Assembly: GCA_038727095.1 (NCBI GenBank) | Contig: JAVYWK010000025.1 | Span: 1 to 27,312 of the forward strand | Origin: Thermofilaceae archaeon | GTDB taxonomy: Archaea; Thermoproteota; Thermoprotei; Thermofilales; Thermofilaceae | DNA: 27,312 bases | Direction: 5' to 3' | In this document: positions 4,685 to 27,018 of the stretch, in pieces | Layout of the letters: every line of letters begins with the position of its first letter | How positions within the stretch are numbered: position 1 is the first letter of the stretch | Notes under the pieces: model-generated | Database searches by the model: none | Told to the model about the DNA's origin: nothing | The model's input: only the letters and a program-made list of their open reading frames with translations | Made by a program: the position numbers and the translations under genes

Positions 4685-5386
4685 ATGCCAGTTGAGTATG
4701 ACGCCGAGCTGGTGAACGAACTTCGGCAGGCGCTAAGCGGGTTGATCATTCCGGTTAAGCTACTGTTCTTCCGAAATACAAGGGAGGAGTGTGAACATTG
4801 CGACGATATAAGGGAGATCTTAAGTCTTCTAGAAAAAGCTTCCGATAAAATTAAGGTCGTGGAGCTGACAGAAAACTCTGAAGAAGCTACACGTCTGGAG
4901 ATCTCCTTGTTCCCAGCTATCGTAGTTCATGGAGTCGAAGAGTACAACATTCGCTTCTTTGGTATGCCGGCTGGCTACGAGTTTGGAGCCCTCGTTGAGG
5001 ACGTTATCGATGCATCGAGAGGTGAGCCGAGAAACCTTTCTCCTCAGCTAGCTAACGCGATTCGAAAGTACGTTACGCGCAAGACCCGGATAAAGGTGTT
5101 TGTGACTCCTACGTGCCCCTACTGTCCTGCAGCTGTACGAGCGGCTCACCGCTACGCGATGGTGAACCGCATGATTTACGGAGACATGATTGAAGCACTC
5201 GAGTTCGCTGGGCTAGCAGATGAGTACAGAGTTTACGCAGTCCCTAAAGTCGTCATCGAAGTCGATGGGGAGGATAAAAGCGAGTTTGAAGGGGCAGCTC
5301 CCGACAGCTACTTCGTAGCGGAAATCCTGAAAGCGAACGGCATCGATCCGGAGGTGGCGGGTCTCAAGGTGATGAGATACCGCTAG
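4685..5386 (+). CDS. Protein-disulfide oxidoreductase (PDO, two thioredoxin folds)
   Basis: CEHC and CPYC active sites, RFFGMPAGYEF, VPK cis-Pro loop and FEGA. Start reassigned to ATG 4685 downstream of T/A-rich 4648-4655, because the 4565 start overlaps DUF92. Confidence 0.9.
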   Translation: MPVEYDAELVNELRQALSGLIIPVKLLFFRNTREECEHCDDIREILSLLEKASDKIKVVELTENSEEATRLEISLFPAIVVHGVEEYNIRFFGMPAGYEFGALVEDVIDASRGEPRNLSPQLANAIRKYVTRKTRIKVFVTPTCPYCPAAVRAAHRYAMVNRMIYGDMIEALEFAGLADEYRVYAVPKVVIEVDGEDKSEFEGAAPDSYFVAEILKANGIDPEVAGLKVMRYR

Positions 5387-6120: not shown

Positions 6121-7218
6121 GTGAGGATACTGCCGTTTCCAGCGTATGTGGGGCTAGATGATCTGAAAAGGGGGCTCCTAGCCCTCGCTGTTGATCCGAG
6201 CATAGGTGGTTTACTGATAATGGGTCCCAAGGGGACGGGAAAATCGAGTATAGTTAGAAGCTTCGCTAGGTTGCTGCCTTCAACAAGAGTTGTTTCGGAC
6301 TGTCCCTTTAGGTGCGAGCCCGATTCTCTGAGAGAGATGTGTGATATCTGCAAGTTGAGACTCGAGCGTGGAGAGGAGCTTCCAGTAGCGGAAACTCCGA
6401 TGCCAATCGTAGAGCTACCGATAGGGGCTACGGAGGACGTAGTTCTCGGGACGATAAACATCGAGCGAACGCTGAAAGAGGGAAGAATAGTGTTTGAGCC
6501 GGGTCTATTGGGAAGAGCAAATAGAGGTATCCTGTATATCGATGAAGTCAACCTCCTTCCCGATCACATTGTTGACTCTATCCTTGATGCTGCTGCCTCC
6601 GGTTGGCACACGGTAGCGCGAGAGGGGATTACGCTGCGCCACCCTGCTCGTTTTATCCTTATCGGAACGATGAACCCCGAGGAGGGTGAACTAAGGCCGC
6701 AGCTGCTCGATCGTTTCGCTATCGGTGTTCGAGCAGAGACGGTCAAAGATTCTAAACTGAGGGCCGAGATCATCAGGAGGAACATAGAGTTCGATAGCGA
6801 CCCAGCAGCGTTCGAAGAGAAATGGAGGCCGATCGAGGAGGAGATCAGGTTTCGAATTCTTAGGGCTCGAGAACTTTTACCTTATGTAAGCGTTGATGAC
6901 CTATACTACGAGCTCGTAGCTAAAGTTTGCACAAGGTTAGAGGTCGATGGTTACAGGCCGGACATCGTCACTGTGAAAGTTGCAAGGGCTCTCGCTGCCC
7001 TCGACGGCAGAACGCAGGTGAGCGAGGAGGATCTGCGCATAGGTCTGGAGCTTGCGTTAAGCCATAGGACGAGAGCTGAGGGATTAAAGCCTCCACCTGC
7101 GAAAGAGGAGATTTACGCAGCATTCAGCGAAGCATTGGGCAAGAAGCCCACGGTGCAAAGAGAGGACGGTCTCGAGAAGAAACCTCAAGTAAGGTTTTTT
7201 CCCCGATGGGCGTATTAG
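6121..7218 (+). CDS. ChlI/BchI-like (Mg/Co-chelatase small subunit type) AAA+ ATPase; N-terminal part of a probable frameshifted chlD-like gene
   Basis: PFPAYVG, Walker A GPKGTGKS, LPIGATED, PGLLGRANRGILYIDEVNLL (Walker B), and GTMNPEEGELRPQLLDRF. Confidence 0.92.
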   Translation: MRILPFPAYVGLDDLKRGLLALAVDPSIGGLLIMGPKGTGKSSIVRSFARLLPSTRVVSDCPFRCEPDSLREMCDICKLRLERGEELPVAETPMPIVELPIGATEDVVLGTINIERTLKEGRIVFEPGLLGRANRGILYIDEVNLLPDHIVDSILDAAASGWHTVAREGITLRHPARFILIGTMNPEEGELRPQLLDRFAIGVRAETVKDSKLRAEIIRRNIEFDSDPAAFEEKWRPIEEEIRFRILRARELLPYVSVDDLYYELVAKVCTRLEVDGYRPDIVTVKVARALAALDGRTQVSEEDLRIGLELALSHRTRAEGLKPPPAKEEIYAAFSEALGKKPTVQREDGLEKKPQVRFFPRWAY

Positions 7219-8281
7219 CCGAATAGTATCAGGTAAGAGCGATGTTCTGGCGTCCCTGCTCGCGCTGCTGTTATTCGTGGCGCTAGCGTTTGTGGATCTG
7301 AGGCTGGCCGCGTTAGCCATCCTTCTCTGGCTCCTCTTGAGCATGCTACTGAGGAGGGACTCGGTGTACTCGGGGAGGAGGGCGCTCATCAGGACAAGGA
7401 GGGCAATCTACGCTACGTTTTCGGGTGGGGCTGATCTCCGAAAAACGCTCCTTCAAGTTTCGCGTGGCATGAAGGTACTGGGAGTTCAGATCGAGCCCAG
7501 CCAGCTGATAGAACTGGCGATTAGAGTGTCCCGTAAAAGGGCCAGAATGCGTGGTAGGAGGAAGATGAGTGGCGCATCGATGGTGATAGACTACACGTTA
7601 CCCAAAGGACTCTACTATAAGCTTCACATTCCAGCCACGTTGAGGCGCAGCGCTGTACTGAAAGAGTTCCCACGCATCGGCTTAGATTCGCTCAGAGCGA
7701 AGCTGTTTGCGGGCAGAGCGAAAGTCTCGTTGGTGCTCGTACTTGATTCAAGCGCATCCATGATGTACTCGATCAGAGGAATTCTCACGGCTCTAAGGAC
7801 AATAGAGAGGGAGGCGCGCAGGTACAGGGATCGCGTTTCGGTCGTAGTGTGTAAGGGATTCGGTGCTGCAGTGCTTCAGCATCCTACAACGAATTTCAAT
7901 CTGGTGCAGAGCAAGCTATCACGAATCGGCCTCGACGATTTCACTCCGCTGGCCGCCGGAATGTACATGGGGCTTAACGTGGCTCTCGCGGAGAAGAGGA
8001 GAGGATACGAACCGGTCATCGTAATCGTTAGTGACGGGAACGCCAATGTCCCGCTTGAGAAACGGAGGGGAAGCGTGTGGAAGCCCGCGCTTGATCCGGC
8101 CGTTCAATCGGTCATGGATGTGGCATCGCAAATAGCGAGGAGCAGTATCGAGACCGTGGTTGTGAACACAAAGCATAGAGAGCCTTCGATGGAGGCTGAG
8201 GGCATGGTCATCAGCGGTACGGAACTCTTGATACAAGTAGCTCGCGTAACAAAGGGAAGTTATGTGGGCATTATAGGCTGA
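7193..8281 (+). CDS. TM hairpin + von Willebrand A (MIDAS) domain; ChlD-like C-terminal part
   Basis: IPATLRRSA pre-vWA motif, LVLDSSASM (DxSxS), TPLA and VSDGNANV. The frame is open from 7193, and the listed GTG 7277 cuts into a hydrophobic helix. Coordinates are the open frame, not a start codon. Confidence 0.82.
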   Translation, partial: GFFPDGRISRIVSGKSDVLASLLALLLFVALAFVDLRLAALAILLWLLLSMLLRRDSVYSGRRALIRTRRAIYATFSGGADLRKTLLQVSRGMKVLGVQIEPSQLIELAIRVSRKRARMRGRRKMSGASMVIDYTLPKGLYYKLHIPATLRRSAVLKEFPRIGLDSLRAKLFAGRAKVSLVLVLDSSASMMYSIRGILTALRTIEREARRYRDRVSVVVCKGFGAAVLQHPTTNFNLVQSKLSRIGLDDFTPLAAGMYMGLNVALAEKRRGYEPVIVIVSDGNANVPLEKRRGSVWKPALDPAVQSVMDVASQIARSSIETVVVNTKHREPSMEAEGMVISGTELLIQVARVTKGSYVGIIG

Positions 8282-15099: not shown

Positions 15100-15848
15100 T
15101 GAGTACGGTTGTGATAAAGATCGGAGGTTCCCTAATCACTGATAAACGGAGGCCTTTCACGCTGAATGAACGCGCGCTGGAAGAAGTTGCCGAGGGTATC
15201 GCCTCTATCCGTGACGGAGCGAGAAGGATCGTAATAGTGCACGGGGGTGGAAGTTTCGGCCACTACGCTGTACAGCAGTCCCGCGGGGACGTTCAGAAGC
15301 TCTTGACCGACGTCGCGTACTGGATGGCCTTCCTAAACCATAAAGTCGTGCACGTGCTCATACAGCACGGCGTATCAGCTGTAGGGCTCCCCACGTGGCT
15401 CGTCGCGCGAGGCTCGAAGGAAGGCCTTCACGTTGAAACAGGACTAGTGGCGAAGCTGCTTGAGGTTGGAGTTGTACCAGTTACTCACGGAGGCTTGATC
15501 AATACCGATGAAGGCTTCAAGATCCTATCAGGTGATACCCTAGCTAGCAAACTCGCCGTCAAGTTGCCAGCTTCAGCACTAATCTTCCTTATGGATGTCG
15601 AAGGGGTTTACACCGAAGATCCACGGGTGAACCCTTCTGCAACTCTGCTCACCGTATTGAGACGAAGCGATGTGGATCGCATAAGAGGCGGGAGCTCAGG
15701 CGTTGATGTAACGGGCGGGTTAATGCTAAAACTGAATGAAGCTATCCATGCCGCAGAACGAGGAGTTAACGTGGCCTTAGGGAGCGTGAAAGCACTCAGA
15801 TCAATTGTTGAGGGAGTAGAGGGCCGCTACACTCGAGTAATCCCTTAA
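15099..15848 (+). CDS. ipk: Isopentenyl phosphate kinase (amino-acid kinase family)
   Basis: KIGGSLITDK, HGGGSFGH, SGD and DVTGG; translationally coupled (TGATG) to the GGPP synthase. Confidence 0.9.
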   Translation: MSTVVIKIGGSLITDKRRPFTLNERALEEVAEGIASIRDGARRIVIVHGGGSFGHYAVQQSRGDVQKLLTDVAYWMAFLNHKVVHVLIQHGVSAVGLPTWLVARGSKEGLHVETGLVAKLLEVGVVPVTHGGLINTDEGFKILSGDTLASKLAVKLPASALIFLMDVEGVYTEDPRVNPSATLLTVLRRSDVDRIRGGSSGVDVTGGLMLKLNEAIHAAERGVNVALGSVKALRSIVEGVEGRYTRVIP

Positions 15849-16206
15849 GCTGGGGCAAAAGGGTTCAGCTAGTATGTACGCCTTCAGCCAGCCTCCCCTC
15901 AGCTGGATTAAGACCGCTCTCCCCTCCCTGCGCGTGAACGCTATGCTCCCCGGCTTCAGCCCCGCAATTTCGAAGGCCTCCAGCGCCTCCGCCATGTAGC
16001 TCAACTTCACGCTCACCTTGAGCTCCTCCGTGCAGCCCCTCAGCAGCGCGGGGAACGTGCGTCCGCAAGCCCTTATGCACAGCTTCTCCCCCCTCACCTC
16101 AAGGAGGCAGTAGTCCTCCAGCAGCCCCCTCTCCCTCCACTTCTCCCTCCTCCACCCCGCGAACCTGAGAACCTCCTTGAAGGATTCAAGGGGAAAACCG
16201 TATCAC
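15801..16206 (-). pseudogene. Frameshifted small gene with sliding-clamp (PCNA-like) pattern
   Basis: The listed 98-aa ORF extends upstream without a stop to about 16200. Removing one base from CGG-TTTT-CCC joins it to GTG 16206 (MIRFPLESFKEVLRFA...). Fold similarity was judged by eye only. Confidence 0.4.
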
Positions 16207-17761
16207 TTCTCGGTATGGGGCGGCGTCCACTTCAGGTCGGGGGATCCCCTGCTCTGCCGCAATTCTATGGAGCCTGTCTAGGTTCACCAAGCTGAAGGAA
16301 CCGCCCCTGAGGGTTAAAACCAGCGTGGATAATAAACTGAAAGTTAACCAAAAATAAAATACACATTTGCTTCACTTTTACCAACCTTTCGGTTGCGCCA
16401 CGATCGTGGGGCGGACAGGTGAAAGCTACCCTGCGATCACGCTCTCTACCATCTGCGCTGCATACAGCTCGCATATTGCGTAAGCCCGCACGTGAAGAGC
16501 CTCTCCCACCTCTTGATTGCGAGCATCTGTTTGAAGCAGGGGATCCTCACGGTACAATCCCCTCCACATCCCTTGATCGTGTCGATACGTGAGTGGATTA
16601 CTCAAAACTGTTTGCGAAACTGATCCTAACCTCTTGGCTGTGTCTACTGCACTCTATCAGCCTCGAACCTGAGCTCCATGACGGTTGGACGCGGGTGAGC
16701 GCGAGCGGAAGAAGGCGAGCGCCTAGAGGTGAAGGAGGGTGGGCGTGGACATAGGCAACTTGGCAGCTGACGACGTCGCGAGCAAGCAGCAACCCACGGT
16801 TCTGGTTAGCCCCCACCGGCACGGCTCAACCTACACGCGGTTTAAACGGGACGGGCTTGAGGAGCTTGCTCAAGCCCGCTTCAAAGAGAAGGTTCAGGAT
16901 CGAAAGGGGGCGGGCGAAAACTCAAAAGCTGTAGTTGAGCTCGAATGCGAGAAGGCTACGACACCAGCGTTTCCCACCTAGGAGGACGATAAAGCTCCGA
17001 GAGCGCGCTGGAGGAGCTGCGGCTTGAGTTGGACTCTACGATGAACGTAATGGGACGAATGTACTGAGAAAGCCCAGGGCGATGCTAAATTTTGGAGATA
17101 TAGTTGTGAGCAGGGCATTCCATCTTGACTGTAGTCTGAGTCCTTAAGCGTTGATGAATTCAAATTGGTGAGGGTGAACTCTCTGCGGGGCTCCGAAATT
17201 TACACCTTGTTGACTGCCAACTCTCTCGTTGGCTTCAGGAGCATGCACGTGATGGTTGCAGCCGGGGAGAAGGGAGCTGTACGCCGCAATGCCTCCGGTC
17301 ATCAGCGTGGAAATACCCTGGGAGGGGCAGGGGCAAGCAACCGCCGGCCTACACGCTCGCACCGCAGCCCGCGGACACCGTGCCGATGTTTAAAGACCCT
17401 CACATGGACAAGGTGCGCGGATTAGGCGAGAACCTCAACGACATGGCAGGCGAGTACGCGAAAGCCCAGCGAGAGCAAGCCTATACAGGAGGGCAGCCAC
17501 AATAGCAGGCAACAGCAAGCTCGACGAAGCCCACAGCGAAAATGGAAAGTATACCTACAAGAGGTAAGCTTCTCCCTTTTAAGCATACTCTTTTCCCAGG
17601 CATAAACCCTATTCCTTTCAGCACCCGGTTTTCATGCACCAGCCAAGGGGCTGGTGGCCACCTTTCGGAGAGAAGGTCTCAGGAAACGTGGTGGGAGGAG
17701 TGGATCGACTAGTGCAGGCAGAGTTTCAGATAGGCTCAACCGGCAGAGGATCCTCTCTCGC

Positions 17762-20700
17762 CTAGAAGTGCAAGTAGAATAGCTTGACTAACGCCTCCAA
17801 AACCCTCTCACTCGGCCACCCTTCTTCAAGCGCCTCAGCGAGCTCTTTGAACAGCGGATCCTCACGTGCGGCATGCCGTGCGAATTTCCTAGCATACAGG
17901 AGGTGCCCTTCGATAATGTATGAGACTATGGACGCTAAATAACCCAAGCTGTTTACTAGCCTGCCCATGATGGAGTTCCTTGCGATTAGCTCCGTCAGCT
18001 CTTCTAAGACTTTATCTCTACTTACCCTGTGCTCAAGCCGGTAGAACTCCTCAACTAGGTACACCATGCCCAAAAGCATCTGATAAACTTCTCCGCCTAA
18101 GACGAACTTCTCGAGAAGCTCAGCGGGTAGTCTCCTGTCGTTGATCAAGCAGGCGAGCATATACTCCGCCAGAGTAAAGTCATGTACGTCAGGATCCTCC
18201 AGCTTCCACTTATCGGCCCTCTTCCAAAGGTTTCCAAACCCGTCCTTCCGCTCTCTCACCGCATCAAGCCCACGCTCAATCACCTCGAGCCTCAGAAGCC
18301 TGCTCCTGACGACTAGCTCATCACGTATGCTGACTGCATCACCGAGCACGCTCAGGCCCCCCTCAAGCAATCTCTTGGCATCAGTTATCTGTCCACGATC
18401 CCACAGTAAGAGTGCCAAATTGTATTGAGCAGTGTAAAGTGTTCGTTTGGCCATTATTTCAAGTCCCTCTCTTGTATTGCCGCCGAGAGGTTTGAGGAAT
18501 TTCTCTACGTGCTCGTCGCTTGCGTACTCATTCAATTCTTTCAGCACCTTTTCTGCGATTCCTATAGAAGATTTTAGGTGCATCTCTGCCTCCTCCTCGT
18601 ACCCCGTTATACGTCGCAAAGCATCGCCGAGATGTGCGCCAGCTACTACGCGCGCAATATCATGTAGTTTCAGCTTCTCAGAGTCCTCCTCCTCCAGCTT
18701 TTTAAGCAGGTTTAAGCATTCTTTATGCTTAGATTCTATATGAACCAATAGGGCGGGAAGATCCAACAGTAACCTAATCATCGCAGCACGTGCGATCGCC
18801 CTATGCGCAATAACCGCAGGGTCTTCACAGGGCTCGGCTATCAAATCTTCGCATATCCGCAATTTCTCTATTAACTCCTCTGGGGGCATCGACACCATGG
18901 CAATCGCATCTGCTAACTCAATCGAGTAGACTGCCGCATGCAAGAGAACTTCTTCGTCCTTAGCTGATCTGCTAAATAGATGCGAAGCTACTGGAACAAA
19001 CCTTATCCCGTACAGGGGACTGAATAATAACGCCTTGTGGCCCCAGTAGAGCGCCTGGATAGCCAGCCACTCACTCGTTATACCGACTTCAATGAGACAC
19101 TTAGACAGGGAGGAGTCCTCGAATACGGTGCCAAGCCATGCTATGTGCCGGAGAGCTGAGAGGATCATCCTGCCAGTACTCCTTCCGAATCTCATCGATT
19201 TTTCATACATTATTTCCAGCAACAGCTTTCTGGCTAAGGCCATCTCACGCGCCAACTCTTCATCCTTTTCCGACAACGTGAGGATTAGGGGTGGTAGATG
19301 AGCCCAGAGCTCGTTGAAACTGTAGAATTTACGCTCTTCTTGAAACCATTGCTCACGGTCCGTCTCTACGATTTCTTCACCTTCTAGGATCCACTTGCAG
19401 CCGAAACCCCTACCGTTCCTGTACTCTTCTGTTCGCTGGCAGAACTCCCTCAGCTCGTCTTCCGCTACTCCGAGGGGCTGGGCAACTAGAGCTGCGTAGG
19501 AGAATTTACTCTCCCTCAAATCCTCATACGTTACTTTAGCAGCTCTGTAGGTGTTCCTCAAAGCGAGCTCGTACAGTTTTTGGAGCTCCCTGGCCAGCTG
19601 CTCAGCTGCTTCCTTCTTCCCGACCTCTTCAGCCTTCCTAAGCTCTTCTCCCAAAGCAGCTACCTCGTCGAAAGTTGGCCACAAAGCCTCTTTAATAGGG
19701 GGGCTCAGGATCTCCCTCAAGGTCTGCTCCCCCATCGCGTAGATCATTAGGGCGAGAGCGGGGATACCCCCGCTGGCTCGGTAAAGTCTGGCGATTATCT
19801 CTTCGTCCACGTCTCCCACGTTAGCTCTGATGATCTCAGCGAAAATCTCTGGCCTGGGGCTGAGGAGTTCTACTACTTGTTCTTCTTGGCGTACATTCGC
19901 CAGCCCATGCTTGGCAAGCCATTTCACGCGATACTTCCTGTACTTAGGCCATTCCTCGAAATCGATCCTGACGACGTGCACTGTTTTAACTCCCCGCTTC
20001 AGCAATCGGCTCAACAGTGAATTTACGGCTCGCATAGCCTCCCTGCTAACCAAGGGATGGCCTCCTCTGAAGCCAAAGCCTATCGTGGAGAGGTCGTCGA
20101 TTACTAGCACAACCTTCTGAGCCTCGGTGGACTCGAGGATCCCCTCGAGCATTTCTTTCTCGAGCCACGACCTAGCGGCAGCCCCCACGACCCTGGCGAG
20201 AGCGATAGCTGCTATGCTTACCAGCCATGATGCTGGAAATGCTGAAGCTGCAAGAATAACTCCCATTCCCCCTGCTGTCAGAATCTCCCCGGCACTTCTA
20301 ACACACTCATCGATGAATTTAGACAGCCCTAGACGGTCGAGGAACCCCCCGATGCTGTTCAAGAACTCTCTGAGGCTACTTTCCGCCGCGGATCGGGCCA
20401 TTTCTAACGCGACCGACTCGGCGATAAGTCCCCGTTCCAGTTTACTACTGATGTCTTCAAGACTGGACTTTAGACCTTTCATACTGGGCTCTAGATCTTT
20501 CATTATGTCCGGCTTCTTTTCCAGCGTCCTGCCTATGTACGCTACCATGCTGATGAACAGCTTGAACTCCTCTTTCCCGATGTGCTCGGATACCCCGATG
20601 CAGGGTATGTCCGTATCAATGAACCTCTCGCATAACAACTCCGGGGGCTTTCCGCCTCTTGAAGGCTTGATGAGTACGGGAATGTAGCCGTTTTCTTGGA

Positions 20701-20869
20701 GCTTGAGGACGATCATTCTGGCTGTAGTAGACTTCCCAACACCGGGGAGCCCCACCAAGGCGACGCTCTCGTGTTTCTCCAGGCGCTTGATTAATTCATC
20801 CTCTACCCCCCGCTCGACGTAGCGCTGCAGCCCTACAACCCCGTTTTTACCCTTCAGGGAGCCTCCCAC
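17762..20869 (-). CDS. Large STAND-class (NB-ARC/AP-ATPase-like) P-loop NTPase with C-terminal TPR-like helical region
   Basis: YVER, Walker A GLPGVGKST, Walker B VVLVIDD, GxP motif SGGIPALA, then a long amphipathic helical region (e.g. AQYNLALLLWDRGQITDAKRLLE). Confidence 0.8.
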   Translation of the reverse strand: MGGSLKGKNGVVGLQRYVERGVEDELIKRLEKHESVALVGLPGVGKSTTARMIVLKLQENGYIPVLIKPSRGGKPPELLCERFIDTDIPCIGVSEHIGKEEFKLFISMVAYIGRTLEKKPDIMKDLEPSMKGLKSSLEDISSKLERGLIAESVALEMARSAAESSLREFLNSIGGFLDRLGLSKFIDECVRSAGEILTAGGMGVILAASAFPASWLVSIAAIALARVVGAAARSWLEKEMLEGILESTEAQKVVLVIDDLSTIGFGFRGGHPLVSREAMRAVNSLLSRLLKRGVKTVHVVRIDFEEWPKYRKYRVKWLAKHGLANVRQEEQVVELLSPRPEIFAEIIRANVGDVDEEIIARLYRASGGIPALALMIYAMGEQTLREILSPPIKEALWPTFDEVAALGEELRKAEEVGKKEAAEQLARELQKLYELALRNTYRAAKVTYEDLRESKFSYAALVAQPLGVAEDELREFCQRTEEYRNGRGFGCKWILEGEEIVETDREQWFQEERKFYSFNELWAHLPPLILTLSEKDEELAREMALARKLLLEIMYEKSMRFGRSTGRMILSALRHIAWLGTVFEDSSLSKCLIEVGITSEWLAIQALYWGHKALLFSPLYGIRFVPVASHLFSRSAKDEEVLLHAAVYSIELADAIAMVSMPPEELIEKLRICEDLIAEPCEDPAVIAHRAIARAAMIRLLLDLPALLVHIESKHKECLNLLKKLEEEDSEKLKLHDIARVVAGAHLGDALRRITGYEEEAEMHLKSSIGIAEKVLKELNEYASDEHVEKFLKPLGGNTREGLEIMAKRTLYTAQYNLALLLWDRGQITDAKRLLEGGLSVLGDAVSIRDELVVRSRLLRLEVIERGLDAVRERKDGFGNLWKRADKWKLEDPDVHDFTLAEYMLACLINDRRLPAELLEKFVLGGEVYQMLLGMVYLVEEFYRLEHRVSRDKVLEELTELIARNSIMGRLVNSLGYLASIVSYIIEGHLLYARKFARHAAREDPLFKELAEALEEGWPSERVLEALVKLFYLHF

Positions 20870-21201
20870 CTATGAGCCCGTTTGATCGCTACTGTTCCCC
20901 TTTTATTCCTTTCCTTATACTGCGGTTTTATTCGAAAAGAGGTTTATAAACCACTTTAACCCTCTCCCGTGTTTAAGTTGAGCTCTAGATTCATAGAGGG
21001 GTGGCGATGTAGCCCACGCTTTACAGACAGCTGTTGAAGGCTCAGAAAGGGTCGCGCTCACAGTCTTAGGGTAGAGTCCCCGAGAGATACGCGCAGGGCT
21101 CTCTTCACTATGGGGAAGGCGATTTGCGCCACGGCGAGAAGATCTGGAGGCTAGGAGCTAGAGTTGGGTCTGATCGATGAGGCTTTAAATGGAGACTGCT
21201 T

Positions 21202-22839
21202 TTACAGGTACTCGAGCAACGTGGTATCACGTTCTCTAGGCGGCCTCATCTGCAGTTCCTCTTCGCCTCTTATGGCCTCTGGTCTAGCCTCCTCCGCTCT
21301 TTGAAGCCTCCTCCTCATCATCGTTTTAGCCAGCATTTTTGCTATCCTCGCCATCTCCACTGACAGCCCGAGGATTCTCGCTATCTCCGCATCGATTTTC
21401 TCGATAACAGTGTCCCAGAGCTTCTCAACGCTCTCGCGCGTGTCCGCCCCGCCAAGCCTGCGAGCCTCAGCCTCGAGCTCGTCAAAGAGGGAGACCAGCA
21501 GCTCCAAGTCTCTCTGGCTAAGCTTTCTGACGTCCAGAACCGGAAGCTCTTCAGCATGCCTAACCTCCAGTGCTATCGGCCCCAGCCCCCCGGGTACTCT
21601 CCCATGCGTCTCTATGTAGAGTTTGACGAAGCTCGAGTTGAGGTAGGCCAGGAGGGCCTTCAGCCTCTCCGCCGGTAAGCTCACCCTGGGTACGAGCGCT
21701 ACGAAGTCCTCATCCAGCATCACCTGAAACTCCATTAGCGTAAACCTGTGGTAGTACCGCGCGTAACGTGGCACGAATATCGGCGCCTCCCTGAGGCCCC
21801 CGAGGTCGTACCAGCCGTAAAAGTGATCCCTATTTCCCTCTCTCTCGCGACATGCTAGCGCTTGGCTGCACACTCTCCCGCCGCCCCTCGTCCCCCTAAT
21901 TCCTGTGCGACAATCGGTCTCCCCCCACCTAATGTACTCCAGAACGTTTTCCGACAGTCTCTCCCTGGGTTCATGGCACATGAAGACATAGCATCTCGAA
22001 CCCCCCTTCTTTATCCGCTCCCAGTCATCTTTGGTGAAGGTGAACCACCTGGCATACCTCGGGCTCGGCAAGGCCGGGTAAGCGTAATCCCTCAAACCGC
22101 GCTGCTGAACCTCCCTCTCGTCTAAATAGAAGAACTCGTTGGCGCCTAAATCGGGTCTTCTCCCGTGCTTAATAGCCCAAATCGACCAAACCGAATTTCC
22201 ACGGCTTACATCAAATAGATCGCCTAACCGAATGGTTCTCTTCCTGAGCTCGCTCAGGATGGCGTCGGCGTCGAAGATGAGGTTGATCCACTTCCGGTCT
22301 CTCGGTATGTCTCCCTGCTTTACGACTCTGATGTAGTAGCGGCCCTCATACTTTTCCGGGTTTTCGATGGCGTCGAGGACTTCGTCGACCCTGAGCTCTC
22401 CACCCCTTTCCAAATCCAAGTAGATGAAGACGGCGCGGTTTGCGTTGCGCTCCTCCTCGTTTGAGCACTTCTCGAGCAGTATGATGCAGGCGCCGATCAG
22501 CGGTACCGGGAAGACGCGAGCGGAGATGTCGATTATAGCCTTGATCTTGAAGTGGTCTAGCAGGAAGTTGCCGAAGTTGATCCCGTAGTCTGTTTGCAGC
22601 CAGCTGTCGGAGATGATCATCCCGAGCCTCCCTCCCTCCTTGAGCATGCTCAAAGAGTGCATCACGAAGTGTATGTAAATGCCGGGTTCCACGCCTCTCT
22701 GAACTTGAGCGGTCAGGTTGTACTTCGTCAGTAGGTTTCCGATCGCATCCCTGATGGCCCTCCTGATCCCCTCCGGGATCTCAGTCCAACGGGTGTACGG
22801 CGGGTTAGCGACCACCGCGTCGAACTTCGGGATGACCAT
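21202..22839 (-). CDS. Type IIG-like restriction-modification enzyme, C-terminal half (MTase motif IV + target-recognition domain)
   Basis: FDAVVANPPY, LKEGGRLGMII, TRD region, ALLAYLNSS and LPVLD. Same frame as the upstream half. Confidence 0.88.
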   Translation of the reverse strand: MVIPKFDAVVANPPYTRWTEIPEGIRRAIRDAIGNLLTKYNLTAQVQRGVEPGIYIHFVMHSLSMLKEGGRLGMIISDSWLQTDYGINFGNFLLDHFKIKAIIDISARVFPVPLIGACIILLEKCSNEEERNANRAVFIYLDLERGGELRVDEVLDAIENPEKYEGRYYIRVVKQGDIPRDRKWINLIFDADAILSELRKRTIRLGDLFDVSRGNSVWSIWAIKHGRRPDLGANEFFYLDEREVQQRGLRDYAYPALPSPRYARWFTFTKDDWERIKKGGSRCYVFMCHEPRERLSENVLEYIRWGETDCRTGIRGTRGGGRVCSQALACREREGNRDHFYGWYDLGGLREAPIFVPRYARYYHRFTLMEFQVMLDEDFVALVPRVSLPAERLKALLAYLNSSFVKLYIETHGRVPGGLGPIALEVRHAEELPVLDVRKLSQRDLELLVSLFDELEAEARRLGGADTRESVEKLWDTVIEKIDAEIARILGLSVEMARIAKMLAKTMMRRRLQRAEEARPEAIRGEEELQMRPPRERDTTLLEYL

Positions 22840-24237
22840 CTAGCGCCTCCTCTCCCCAGCCGGAGTCCTAATGACGTAAGGTGTGAAGACCACCTGCCCG
22901 GCTCTGACCCTGAAGAAGTCCGTGAGGACGGTGTTGACGTCAGCCGATGGGGCCTTGATGTAGCGGGAGGCGAGGTTCAAAGCGGTTAAGTGGAGCGGGA
23001 ATGGGTTGATGTCGAAGCCGTAGAGCTGGCTGAGTATCTCCCTGTGCACCTTCTCGTCGGGCTCCTTGTAACCTTTCAGCTCCAGTAGGCGCTTGTACGC
23101 CTTGACCAGGAACGTCCCTGACCCGCAGCCGGGATCCAGGACTTTGTCCTCAGGGCTCCTGACAGCCCACTTCACGATCAGCTCGGCGATGGCCGGAGGG
23201 GTGTAGAACTGGCCCAGGGCGTGCCTTTCCTCGGCTGGGATGAGCTCCTCGTAAACGAAGCCGACGACGTCGGAGCTCAGCTCCTCAAGCTTGTAGCGAT
23301 CCATGTCCTCTATGAACGAGTCCACCTCCTCGAGCACCATGGGATCGTCGGGGAGCACTATCTGGTCGTAAATCCCCGTGAAGAACACCGGCTCGAAGTT
23401 CCCGGTGATCTCGACAGCTCTGGCGAAGTAGCGTTGCAGCGTCTCCAGGTACGATCTGGCGTCAGGGGCTCCGATGTACCTGAGCCTGCGCCCCCCAAGC
23501 TCCCCGTAGTGCCTCTCCAAAACTTTGTAAAACACTATCTTGTTCATGAAGATGTAAGCCATCTCCCTGGCCAGCTGGGAGGCATCGGGCCTGTAGCCCA
23601 CCTCACTTGCAAACTCCTCGTAAAGGCGCCTAAAGTCTTCATCGGCCCTTAGCCTTTCACCGACCAGAGGTTCTATAACCTCGGAGAGCCACCCGACGAA
23701 ATCCCTGAGCTTGACGATGAAAGACCAGTCGAGCGGCGTGATGGCCACAGGAGCCCGCCTGTAGAGGCGGGCGACGGTGACCAGAATCTCCTCGGCGAGC
23801 TCCTCGCTTATGGTTATACCGTCCTTCAGCAGAACCCTGTGCGTGTAGAAGGAGAACTTCTCGCCGGAGCTAGGCGTCCTGAATAGGGCGAGGATCCTAC
23901 CGTTCGTCGTGGCGAAGTAGGGGGCTCCGGAGTGGATAGCATACGACAATGCTTGTTCAATGACGGTACTACTCGTGGGCATGAAGGTTCGAACGGCTCG
24001 GTAACGGCCCTCCCTCACGTACTCCCGCTTGGTCTCGATGATCAGAAGGGGTTTCTTGGCATCAGCTAGGATGACCGCTATGTCGGCCCTGCGACCATCG
24101 ACGGGGTACTGAGTCTTAGGCTCTTCAAACCTGACACCCTCAATGACAAAACCTCTCTTCTCCAAAACGCTGTAGATGTAATGGTAAAGCCTACTCTCGA
24201 CCTCGCTTTCCCTACTTATACCAGACCACCTCTGCAA
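22840..24237 (-). CDS. Type IIG-like restriction-modification enzyme, N-terminal half (HsdR_N-like PD-(D/E)xK nuclease + N6-MTase motifs X/I)
   Basis: RADI...IIETKR...EQALSYA...TTNG nuclease, GQFYTPP, LDPGCGSGTFL and GFDINP. Ends at an in-frame TAG directly before the next ORF. Confidence 0.88.
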   Translation of the reverse strand: MQRWSGISRESEVESRLYHYIYSVLEKRGFVIEGVRFEEPKTQYPVDGRRADIAVILADAKKPLLIIETKREYVREGRYRAVRTFMPTSSTVIEQALSYAIHSGAPYFATTNGRILALFRTPSSGEKFSFYTHRVLLKDGITISEELAEEILVTVARLYRRAPVAITPLDWSFIVKLRDFVGWLSEVIEPLVGERLRADEDFRRLYEEFASEVGYRPDASQLAREMAYIFMNKIVFYKVLERHYGELGGRRLRYIGAPDARSYLETLQRYFARAVEITGNFEPVFFTGIYDQIVLPDDPMVLEEVDSFIEDMDRYKLEELSSDVVGFVYEELIPAEERHALGQFYTPPAIAELIVKWAVRSPEDKVLDPGCGSGTFLVKAYKRLLELKGYKEPDEKVHREILSQLYGFDINPFPLHLTALNLASRYIKAPSADVNTVLTDFFRVRAGQVVFTPYVIRTPAGERRR

Positions 24238-24977: not shown

Positions 24978-26729
24978 GTGGGTTTCGCCTGGTTGAGGGT
25001 GGAGCCCCCGATCCAGAGGAGCCTCCTCGTCGCGTTGAAAGCGGCTGGTAAAGGTCTCGTCTGGAACAGCGGTGGTGGGTTGAGGCTGGCTGTACCCGTG
25101 GAGTTTGAATCCGCGGTGGGGGAGCACGTGAGAGTGGAGTCATGCAACCCGCCCGTGTTGAAGCCTTCGAAGCCTTGGAGGGTGAGCGAGCTCTCCATCG
25201 AGGTCTCCTCCCTCAGGCTGGGAGCGGCCTGGTTCAAGGTGAGGGATGCGAGGAGGCTGGTAGTGGAGCTGGTTAAGCAGGGTGGCGGTGAAGTACCGCT
25301 ACTATCGAGGAGCTGGGTTTTCTCCGTGCAAGAGCTCGGCTACACCTGCTTTCAAGTCTGCGCCGTCATGTTCACGCCAAACGGGGGTTTGAGGCCGACG
25401 CGGAGGCTGCTGAAGCTCAGGAAGCCCAGCCTACTCTACGCTCCCATGCTCCTCAGCCCCGACGAACTCCTCCAACTGGTCAGGGGTTTGTCGAGGAGGA
25501 TGGTTGTCAACCCCGTTGGTAGGGGGGAGGTGGAGATGGGCTGTGCAGCTCTAGTGAAGGCTGCCGACGACCTCTACCTCGGGTTCCGCAAGTGTGGGAG
25601 CAACTCCCTCCTCGCGGTGGGGAACCCGGGGACTGGGAAGTCCGTCTATATCGACTACCTCCTCTCCCAGCTCTCCCGGTACAAGTGGCCCGGGAGCATC
25701 CTCGTCTTCGACCCGACGGGTGAGCACGCGGTACTAGCGCAGTACGGCTTCCGAGTGCTGGAGCCGGGGGTTGACGCCCTCATCAACCCCCTGACGCTGG
25801 GCGTTGAAGTGGCGTTGGAGGTGGTGGAGGGAGCTACAGTCGAGTTGAAGGGGTTGCACTGGGGCTACGGGCCTGGGAGCTACGCTGCTCTGAGGGAGGC
25901 TCTGGAATCCTCCTCCACGCTCTTCGAAGCAGCCCGGCGCTTGAGAGGCCGAGCCCACTCTGGAGGGGAGTGGGGTGAGATGGCTCAAGCCGCTCTGCGC
26001 AGGCTTCTACCCGTCCTCCACCCCTCTCTCGCCGGTTGGACTCCGCTACCGGAGGGTAGGGTGGTGCTGGTAATGCCCCGCATGTTGAGGAGCTTGGAGC
26101 AGAGGCTCGCTTTCACCATCGCCCTGCTCAGAACCGTCTACTGGGCCGCATACCGGCGATCCTGGTCCGGGCTAGTGGTTGTTGAAGAGGCCGACCGTTT
26201 GGGGCCGGGTTGCGCCGCACTAAGCCAGGTGGTTGACGAGTTGAGGAAGTTCGACGTGCACGTCTGGGCCGTGGCACACGATGTTTCAAGGGTGCCCGCA
26301 GCCCTACAGGGTTGCAGGTACCGCTTCTTCTTCCAGTGCACTGCTGAGGGTGCGGCTAAGTACCTCAACTCCCTGGGTTTTGAGAGCGCGAAGGTGGCGA
26401 CACTCCCCAAGCTCACCTTCCTCGACTGCTACGGGTACGAGCGGGTTGTACCCTACCTGCCAGGCTTTGCAGACCGGTTGAGGATGCTGGGTGAGCCGGT
26501 CGACTTCGACGGTGCAGCTAGGGAGTTCGGGTTGGATAGGCTGGAGCTAATGGAGCTGTACGCGCTCCACCTACCCCACGCCCGGGAGATCGTCAAGTTC
26601 GCTTTGAAGCAGCCGATGACTGCTGAGGAGTTGGACGCTGTAAGGGGCTTGAACCTCGATGGGGTTCGGGTGAGAGCGCTTGCCAGACTCTACCTGCAAG
26701 CCTTCAACCGGCCCAGCTTCTACGGCTAG
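24978..26729 (+). CDS. HerA/VirB4/FtsK-superfamily (DUF87-like) ATPase with uncharacterised N-terminal region
   Basis: Walker A GNPGTGKS, VFDPTGEH, INPL, Walker B VVVEEAD, and Arg-finger region ELRKF. Confidence 0.82.
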   Translation: MGFAWLRVEPPIQRSLLVALKAAGKGLVWNSGGGLRLAVPVEFESAVGEHVRVESCNPPVLKPSKPWRVSELSIEVSSLRLGAAWFKVRDARRLVVELVKQGGGEVPLLSRSWVFSVQELGYTCFQVCAVMFTPNGGLRPTRRLLKLRKPSLLYAPMLLSPDELLQLVRGLSRRMVVNPVGRGEVEMGCAALVKAADDLYLGFRKCGSNSLLAVGNPGTGKSVYIDYLLSQLSRYKWPGSILVFDPTGEHAVLAQYGFRVLEPGVDALINPLTLGVEVALEVVEGATVELKGLHWGYGPGSYAALREALESSSTLFEAARRLRGRAHSGGEWGEMAQAALRRLLPVLHPSLAGWTPLPEGRVVLVMPRMLRSLEQRLAFTIALLRTVYWAAYRRSWSGLVVVEEADRLGPGCAALSQVVDELRKFDVHVWAVAHDVSRVPAALQGCRYRFFFQCTAEGAAKYLNSLGFESAKVATLPKLTFLDCYGYERVVPYLPGFADRLRMLGEPVDFDGAAREFGLDRLELMELYALHLPHAREIVKFALKQPMTAEELDAVRGLNLDGVRVRALARLYLQAFNRPSFYG

Positions 26730-26730
26730 A

Positions 26731-27018
26731 GTGAAAGTTGGGGGCTTCATCGGCCCCCTAGGGGACTGGAAGCTCTACCTACCAGTCGTGAGGAGGGCAT
26801 TGGAGGCTGACGTGGCGGTCTTCAGGCACGAGGGTGGCGCGAGGGCGACCATCATCATCGAGAAGCTCGCCAACGGCTGGAGGGTGAAGCCGGCCAACGC
26901 GACCATCCCGGGGGAGCAGAAGGAGGGGCTGGAAAAGCTCCTCGCACTCCTCCTCCACCCAAACAAGTGGAGGTTCACACTAGAGTTAGAAATAAATACA
27001 TGCACTCCACAAGCCTGA
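26731..27018 (+). CDS. Small hypothetical protein (95 aa) coupled to the HerA-like ATPase
   Basis: GTG 1 bp after the ATPase stop (TAG-A-GTG), same frame as the listed 26680 ORF: MKVGGFIGPLGDWKLYLPVVRRAL... Confidence 0.65.
   Translation: MKVGGFIGPLGDWKLYLPVVRRALEADVAVFRHEGGARATIIIEKLANGWRVKPANATIPGEQKEGLEKLLALLLHPNKWRFTLELEINTCTPQA

Follow-up and report, generated by a model that had tools for sequence, protein, structure and literature searches.

The stretch of DNA analysed here (the window; 27,312 nucleotides (nt) of contig JAVYWK010000025.1 from a Thermofilaceae archaeon) carries on its reverse strand an uninterrupted gene of 1035 codons, the product of which is designated P0001. The protein is very probably a STAND (NLR-like) NTPase of the nSTAND3/Avs5 type: beyond the NTPase module lie a lid, what is probably a winged helix and a solenoid of TPR-like kind, an effector is present at neither end, and there is a family-specific addition, composed of a β-hairpin and an all-helical domain of about 150 amino acids (aa). 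The following features were recognised in the gene.

17762..20869, minus strand: the entire gene of P0001 (STAND NTPase with TPR-like sensor, 1035 aa); translation starts at a GTG, and the stop codon occupies 17762-17764.
20729..20752, minus strand: Walker A motif GLPGVGKS, aa 40-47; G40, G45 and K46 are invariant in the family alignments of 41 and 33 sequences.
20588..20641, minus strand: extra β-hairpin after strand 2, aa 77-94, with the motif E-x-x-D-E-x-G; AlphaFold2 strands at aa 77-83 and 86-94.
20132..20575, minus strand: all-helical insertion domain, aa 99-246, placed by the AlphaFold2 model between strand 2 with its hairpin and the Walker B strand.
20174..20284, minus strand: uncharged Gly/Ala-rich helix-turn-helix, aa 196-232 (ILTAGG...VVGAAA), with the turn at SAFP, aa 210-213.
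20093..20110, minus strand: Walker B motif VLVIDD, aa 254-259; D258 invariant, D259 at least 90% conserved; model strand at aa 253-258.
19967..19969, minus strand: Arg301, at least 90% conserved, in a sensor-1-like position at the end of strand 4 (model strand at aa 295-301).
19754..19774, minus strand: lid (helical domain 1) motif SGGIPAL (GxP), aa 366-372; lid helices at aa 340-388 in the model.
19280..19552, minus strand: conserved block, aa 440-530, with invariant or nearly invariant columns (Y448, Q464, E472, Y516, W522, H524).
17765..19192, minus strand: C-terminal helical-repeat (TPR-like) sensor, aa about 560-1035, supported by comparison of the family profile with Protein Data Bank (PDB) sequences; ends in the VKLFY-H motif.
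18344..18454, minus strand: clearest TPR unit, aa 806-842, from profile matches and weak matches to Pfam TPR_4, TPR_10 and TPR_14 at aa 814-851.
18603..18790, minus strand: strain-variable patch of the sensor, aa about 694-756, from a metagenome contig and the alignment of the close clade.

The GTG start is credible, because two close homologues (P0006 and P0008) and a shortened second copy in the same genome begin with the same N terminus, MG(G/S)(S/P)LKGKNG. Of the marks by which the STAND superfamily is reportedly defined, P0001 has a Walker A of the form GxxxxGK[ST], a Walker B of the form hhhhDD, an Arg at the end of strand 4, a GxP lid and C-terminal repeats. Within the lid, where GGIP itself occupies aa 367-370, S366 does not vary in a ten-sequence alignment (A4) and G367, G368 and L372 hardly vary there; A373 is kept by at least 90% of the family. 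Arg301 may act as sensor 1. The block at aa 440-530 is a putative winged-helix domain; the winged helix of STAND proteins contacts the nucleotide through a conserved His, and H524 is nearly invariant in the same alignment. The Pfam family nSTAND3 (PF20720) matches P0001 with 33.9 bits, above its curated cut-off of 27.2, over just positions 1-51 of the 155 in the profile, and is found in 31 of 33 aligned members at E ≤0.01.

The family was examined in 41 rows, these being the members with recognisable motifs (P0001 is counted twice, also as P0002). In all of them Walker A starts at or before aa 51, with no more than 50 residues ahead of it, and scans of P0001 against Pfam, PADLOC and NCBIfam found no effector family. 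Walker A and Walker B are 214 aa apart (start to start) in P0001 and 155-301 aa apart in each of the 41 rows; this long spacing indicates that an insertion after strand 2 and ahead of the Walker B strand is a trait of the whole family. A preliminary description of this DNA, made from the letters of the sequence, had placed Walker A about 40 aa from the N terminus with no effector before it, had counted about 200 aa between Walker A and B, and had pointed to a GxP motif and to a Gly/Ala-rich hydrophobic stretch at 20175-20284; all four stand, the last of them as the most hydrophobic part of the protein and with its boundary moved by one nucleotide.

An AlphaFold2 model of aa 1-400, built from the 41-row alignment, reached a mean predicted local distance difference test (pLDDT) of 79.7 and a predicted template modelling score (pTM) of 0.81. 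Its elements follow one another as strand 1 (aa 35-40), P-loop, helix 1, strand 2 (aa 63-70), the extra β-hairpin (aa 77-94; E81 is invariant in alignment A4), a set of helices (aa 99-246), the Walker B strand (aa 253-258), strand 4 ending with Arg301, strand 5 and the helical lid with GGIP. Structure prediction, as had been suggested in the preliminary description, has thus returned a STAND-type NTPase core with the helix-turn-helix lodged in an all-helical insertion, for the part of the protein that the model covers. In a VIA-align comparison of this model with 48,161 PDB representatives, the Avs5 filament (9nc9_D) came first (Z 11.4, root-mean-square deviation 5.3, 174 residues aligned) and EfAvs5 (9jap_A) tenth (Z 10.8), both statistically tied with Cdc6/ORC, RFC, NSF and other AAA+ proteins, 2qby_A among them (Z 11.3, 222 residues aligned). 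The Avs5 chain covers model aa 16-400 with just 179 residues of its own, which identifies the β-hairpin and the helical domain as additions relative to Avs5. Foldseek of the same model against the PDB gave weak global matches with template modelling (TM) scores of at most 0.34, including Get3, TrwB, HerA and RdrA.

The insert was also studied on its own. Folded alone, aa 95-250 had a pLDDT of 70.7 and a pTM of 0.50, and fold searches with it yielded nothing above noise (best Foldseek E-value 0.73; best VIA-align Z 7.4, under the noise level of helical bundles); an unmatched fold of this kind is not evidence of a new one. The ESM Atlas gave no usable look-alike of aa 95-250 and holds no model of P0001. 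A four-copy complex prediction of the insert scored 0.00 in a run without controls, and is neutral on self-association.

The hydrophobic element is modelled as helices at aa 183-200 and 202-208, the SAFP turn and a helix at aa 212-231, with a pLDDT of 66-79 in the 400-aa model. Its 19-aa Kyte-Doolittle maximum (2.01, aa 204-222) is the highest in the whole protein, and aa 196-232 contain a run of 30 aa free of D, E, K, R, H, N and Q (37 aa if one Arg is counted), rich in the small residues Gly, Ala and Ser. Such a run is unusual for a soluble protein: among 1152 crude open reading frames (ORFs) of at least 200 aa from the same genome, 81 have uncharged runs of at least 30 aa, and 75 of these 81 possess two or more membrane-like segments. 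The helices that precede and flank the element are amphipathic (hydrophobic moment 0.45-0.57); aa 202-231 are uniformly hydrophobic (0.09-0.21). In the close clade the column identity of the element is 0.94, equal to that of the Walker A region, and that of the whole protein is 0.857. The uncharged run is 30-37 residues long in this clade and 9-24 in other members.

The C-terminal half appears to be a solenoid. P0001 taken alone has weak Pfam TPR matches (TPR_4, E 0.07), and Pfam TPR families match five of the 33 aligned members. Positions 706-742 of the family profile, which correspond to P0001 aa 806-842, match consensus TPR proteins at E 9e-40, and the profile also matches the TPR sensor of PH0952 (E 6.6e-5). 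The TPR-like region given in the preliminary description is therefore upheld by the unit at aa 806-842 and by the PH0952 match, and the solenoid nature of the entire half may be regarded as partly verified. This region is also the changeable part of the protein: a 4649-nt contig of metagenome run X5 spans 17021-21194 with 198 unlike letters in place of 18603-18790, several further contig joints fall within 18409-19038, and aa 561-800 are the least conserved in the clade (0.80), with insertions and deletions in alignment A1. The C-terminal tail motif, (A)LVKLFY-H (17765-17800, aa about 1024-1035), is kept family-wide even at about 20% overall identity and may dock on another part of the protein.

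The family is small and scattered. A word-indexed search found six close relatives (68-79% identity) and one weak match; five of the six belong to metagenome-assembled genomes (MAGs) of Thermofilaceae archaea and the sixth is P0008. A HMMER search of 1.84 billion cluster representatives returned 57 proteins at E ≤1e-3, 32 of them at E ≤1e-10, the longest with 1144 aa; the ten representatives that were examined stand for clusters of 1-3 members without informative names. Within the order, a full-length copy occurs in one of 41 species genomes, that of the window, and the four other species of the same genus have P-loop-level matches alone. Two of 401 sampled genomes of the phylum (G000 and G083) encode full-length copies, and a third carries, where a contig ends, an N-terminal fragment. 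Relatives occur in one Methanosarcinales MAG, two Archaeoglobaceae MAGs and one metagenome contig; related loci were searched for with the ten-sequence alignment. A remnant of a second copy, a 75-aa ORF at L002:1384-1611(-) (contig C3 of G000, 4838-5065), is 76% identical to P0001 over its first 32-37 residues and diverges thereafter.

Variants of the gene at 85-99% likeness were seen on contigs of four hot-spring or sediment runs. Contigs from one RNA library match parts of the gene at 85-93% likeness, a weak hint that it is expressed. The contigs of the RNA-library run X15 cover the genes and leave out the gene-poor stretch 16084-17787 and the intergenic bin 20912-21195; being contigs, they are not evidence of transcription limits.

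Five loci of the family have readable flanks, and at four of them defence-type genes are found nearby. In the window a type IIG-like restriction-modification (R-M) gene and a HerA-like ATPase lie upstream of the STAND gene, and downstream a gene-poor stretch of 1.7-1.9 kilobases (kb) is followed by housekeeping genes. At L034 a type IIG R-M gene ends 35 nt ahead of the STAND gene, with a further type IIG fragment beyond. At L038 the neighbours are an OLD/GajA-like nuclease-ATPase, a LmuB-like SMC protein and a second nSTAND3 protein, and at L053, from G083, an AriA/HEC-01A-like ATPase adjoins the gene, accompanied by a DndC-like protein, a helicase and a Cas4-like nuclease. No neighbour is conserved across the five loci, and this includes any possible effector.

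Two further features stand directly upstream of the gene in the window.

20901..20950, minus strand: A/T-rich TATA-like boxes 5' of the start (TTTATAAA at 20943-20950 and AATAAAA at 20901-20907), recognised in the sequence itself; they may act as a promoter.
21202..24237, minus strand: type IIG/Eco57I-like restriction-methyltransferase gene, the upstream neighbour, with an in-frame TAG at 22840-22842.

The adjoining R-M gene mentioned in the preliminary description is thus real, upstream and on the same strand, but it is interrupted. The TAG splits it into ORFs of 465 and 545 aa, over both of which the methyltransferase motifs are spread, NPPY being located just past the stop. At plus-strand position 22842 the contigs of all four metagenome runs have C and not A, giving the codon GAG (Glu), and the copy in the window therefore has either a nonsense change or an assembly error that is absent in related populations. 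A conserved operon of R-M and STAND genes was considered and rejected: the R-M proteins of the window and of L034 share just the methyltransferase motifs (pairwise BLASTP E 0.001 and 8e-5). Since these are generic, the R-M gene represents a shared neighbourhood and not a conserved partner. Membership in a MADS system was likewise discarded, the matches to mad2, mad8 and MADS2 being weak and far under the curated cut-offs.

Several other observations concern the surroundings. Divergent from the R-M gene, 24978-26729(+) encodes a 583-aa HerA/DUF87-like ATPase (weak PADLOC matches to mad8 and HerA), followed by a 112-aa ORF without a family at 26680-27018(+); the ATPase, encoded where the contig ends, could belong to defence as well. 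The housekeeping block and the STAND gene are separated by a spacer of about 1.7 kb (16100-17760), in which ORFs do not exceed 86 aa and neither Rfam families nor tRNAs were matched; scans of the whole window for these were also negative. Populations differ in this spacer by an indel, contigs of two runs lacking 326-343 nt at 16678/16695-17020. At 15873-16211 lies a repeat of about 225-340 nt with eight further copies (68-83% identity) on other contigs of the genome and seven matches in one congeneric species; its shared core of about 230 nt overlaps a 98-aa ORF without a Pfam match, 15801-16097(-), and it has very high metagenome depth. It looks like a small multi-copy gene family rather than a transposon with inverted ends. 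The housekeeping left half of the window holds, at 6121-8281(+), a common pair composed of a MoxR-like AAA ATPase (AAA_5, AAA_lid_2) and a VWA-domain protein. The second nSTAND3-type protein of L038, a metagenome contig (413-3535(+), 1040 aa), is encoded 5 kb from the family member and has a normal Walker A-B spacing; about 200 aa at its N terminus form a domain that opens with a hydrophobic segment and includes a coiled coil, as in the classical effector-first layout.

Taken together, P0001 is probably a stand-alone antiviral or anti-invader pattern-recognition receptor. The sporadic occurrence across phyla, the gene decay, the strain-variable sensor and the defence neighbourhoods fit an accessory, fast-evolving immune receptor. 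The variable solenoid would bind a protein of the invader, and nucleotide-dependent oligomerisation would follow, possibly into a filament as in Avs5. As no terminal effector and no conserved partner were found, an output built into the protein itself has a single candidate, the inserted domain. At rest, the Gly/Ala-rich helix-turn-helix might be packed among the amphipathic helices of the insert; oligomerisation would cluster and expose the hairpins, and these could bind or perturb the membrane as short re-entrant hairpins, unlike the pairs of spanning helices in KAP and YobI proteins, with dormancy or death of the infected cell as the outcome. The entire statement, with the inserted domain as a built-in membrane-active output module, is the likeliest single mechanism of output and at the same time a doubtful one. 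The preliminary description had likewise put forward an antiviral sensor with an embedded membrane effector: the effector-less STAND-TPR build, the sporadic distribution and the defence genes speak for the sensor, and membrane insertion and the effector role are what we infer.

A number of observations weigh against this explanation, in its immune part or in its membrane part. The count of four defence neighbourhoods comes from five loci with no background control; housekeeping genes occupy the left flank of the window, and the fragmented copy at L036 lies amid housekeeping genes. A housekeeping context, which the preliminary description had named as contrary evidence, is found at one locus of the five and on the left flank of the window. 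PADLOC, suggested in the same description, assigned no defence system: P0001 has P-loop-level matches alone and none to an Avs model, and NCBIfam has no model for it beyond the P-loop. For the insert, a colicin- or Bcl-2-like fold, or that of another pore-former or membrane-remodelling protein, was sought and rejected, no match exceeding noise. Pro212 divides the hydrophobic stretch into segments of about 16 and 20 residues, which do not suffice for a pair of transmembrane helices. The hydrophobicity of the stretch is borderline, the best 19-mer having +1.87 kcal/mol by a simple sum on a Hessa scale; on the same scale the score is ≤0 in two, ≤1.5 in four and ≤3 in 20 of the 41 family rows. In members beyond the close clade the element consists of one helix, often with K, R, D or E, as exemplified by GLGWVVSLIKSVWGLVRVLREK in the copy from the complete genome G083. 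Members with such charged helices also have no effector, and membrane insertion in the form seen here therefore cannot be the output of the whole family. A basic cluster after the helix, resembling the positive-inside pattern, seemed to recur in the alignment; when counted, it was found in 17 of 40 members and was absent in this clade. Models of the two P-loop families with membrane helices did not match either: KAP (PF07693) is absent from the Pfam matches of P0001 at E ≤10 and has eight weak P-loop matches at E ≤1 elsewhere in the genome, and YobI (PF20693) has no match in the genome at E ≤1, with no Tmn model among the PADLOC matches of P0001. P0001 is accordingly not a member of KAP or YobI, and the analogy to the KAP hallmark of transmembrane insertions, drawn in the preliminary description, does not hold.

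The explanation that competes best with a membrane-active module retains the STAND-TPR sensor and regards the hairpin as the buried core of a structural or regulatory insertion, serving oligomerisation, autoinhibition or the binding of ligand or nucleic acid, with an output through nucleoside triphosphate consumption, stoichiometric sequestration of the viral target or an unlinked partner. We hold it to be rather unlikely. The helix is charged and below transmembrane grade in many members, and AlphaFold2 puts the region inside the helical insertion with a moderate pLDDT of 66-83 for aa 181-230. Insertions at the same position, helix 2 of the AAA+ core, form DNA- or partner-binding wedges in ORC/Cdc6/DnaA-type ATPases, and ATPases of this type are among the tied structural matches (e.g., 2qby_A). 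A precedent for output by nucleotide consumption is provided by Tmn, whose defence is linked to enhanced ATP turnover (PMC13001434). This explanation leaves unaccounted for the 94% column identity of 30-37 uncharged residues in the clade and the occurrence of such runs mostly in membrane proteins of the genome, and none of the neighbours at the five loci is a conserved effector candidate.

Alternatively, the element may be a constitutive membrane anchor, a monotopic re-entrant hairpin that is always in the membrane and holds the NTPase and its solenoid there, as in Tmn/YobI or KAP, so that viruses would be sensed as they enter or assemble. The Kyte-Doolittle maximum of 2.0 (aa 204-222), the 30-aa uncharged run and the richness in small residues agree with this, as does a pLDDT below 50 for aa 202-216 in the insert folded alone, which gives no confident soluble packing; Tmn (PMC13001434) is a precedent of an effector-less P-loop defence NTPase with inserted helices and solenoid arms. 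The segments before and after Pro212 (about 16 and 20 residues) are nevertheless too short to give two membrane-spanning helices, homology to KAP or YobI is lacking, the versions in relatives are charged and non-transmembrane, and no basic flank exists in the clade. Such an anchor is improbable.

A non-immune STAND protein, acting in signal transduction as MalT or PH0952 do, or as a chaperone with Get3-like client binding in a hydrophobic groove formed by the insert, draws on the profile match to the PH0952 sensor, on Get3 chains among the weak Foldseek matches (E about 1e-3, TM 0.17-0.20) and on the housekeeping surroundings of the L036 relative, but is quite unlikely, as no DNA-binding or other output domain was found in P0001, the gene is missing from 399 of the 401 genomes sampled in the phylum and from all four congeners of the window's species, which misfits a housekeeping role, the L036 copy is fragmented, and the Get3-like reading was rejected on very low TM-scores (0.16-0.21) and sequence matches confined to the P-loop.

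Prokaryotic STAND or NLR-like receptors have been described as assemblies of sensor, NTPase and effector, and those of archaea and those without effectors are little studied. Should the insert prove to be the output module, the effector in NLR-type immunity can lie inside the nucleotide-binding oligomerisation domain (NOD), and P0001 would offer a compact model of how oligomerisation leads to membrane damage in archaea. If it is not, the gene is still a new defence-island candidate for hot-spring archaea, and a caution against calling borderline hydrophobic helices transmembrane insertions.

The family was without a description in the literature that we found, and is probably a novel variant of Avs-like sensors, namely an archaeal STAND protein with a domain inserted in its nucleotide-binding domain (NBD). 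Full-text searches yielded no account of STAND proteins whose NBD bears a hydrophobic insertion made of helices. A 2026 survey of about 90 defence-associated STAND families (PMC13581612) has supplements that, where available, did not match two accessions of one relative or two taxon names, and other identifiers may have been used there. The nearest known system by structure is Avs5 (AVAST type 5; 9nc9, 9jap), which like P0001 has an nSTAND3 NTPase and C-terminal helical repeats and is the top structural match of the NOD module. The Avs5 preprint gives the architecture as SIR2-nSTAND3-repeat; P0001, by contrast, has no N-terminal SIR2 or other effector and has about 200 extra residues (hairpin and helical domain) between strand 2 and Walker B. 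Lacking a terminal effector, it falls outside the tripartite definition of Avs.

In concept P0001 is also close to Tmn, a defence protein in which hydrophobic helices interrupt the P-loop NTPase domain, long solenoid arms are present and an effector domain of its own is lacking (PMC13001434). Tmn has two full transmembrane helices, whereas P0001 has one stretch of 30-37 aa, and there is no sequence relationship between P0001 and Tmn/YobI. The NTPase of P0001, in contrast to that of Tmn, bears STAND hallmarks (GxP lid, TPR). Its hydrophobic element is also too short for the two or four transmembrane helices that KAP NTPases are said to carry within the NTPase domain; KAP proteins include Kidins220/ARMS and PifA, the latter with a role in defence. 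STAND proteins of the MalT/PH0952 type (6mfv) resemble P0001 in the combination of STAND and TPR sensor, in archaeal origin and in the profile match to the sensor. They differ from it by an output, since P0001 has no DNA-binding or other output domain that we could find, and presumably by the absence of an NBD insertion.

In the plant ZAR1 resistosome, in colicins and in the Bcl-2 family, a hydrophobic helix or hairpin hidden in a helical bundle is released upon oligomerisation to attack the membrane. The likeness of P0001 to these proteins is a functional analogy alone, the insert having no structural match to any of them, and the bundle of ZAR1 is N-terminal and not inside the NTPase domain. 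It is conceivable, if rather unlikely, that P0001 is an NLR-type receptor with a latent membrane-attacking hairpin inside its nucleotide-binding domain as death effector, in place of a terminal domain, so that nucleotide-driven oligomerisation would directly assemble a membrane lesion; hyperthermophilic archaea, whose membranes are of the tetraether type, would then possess a third independent coupling of a P-loop NTPase to the membrane, next to those of KAP and YobI/Tmn.

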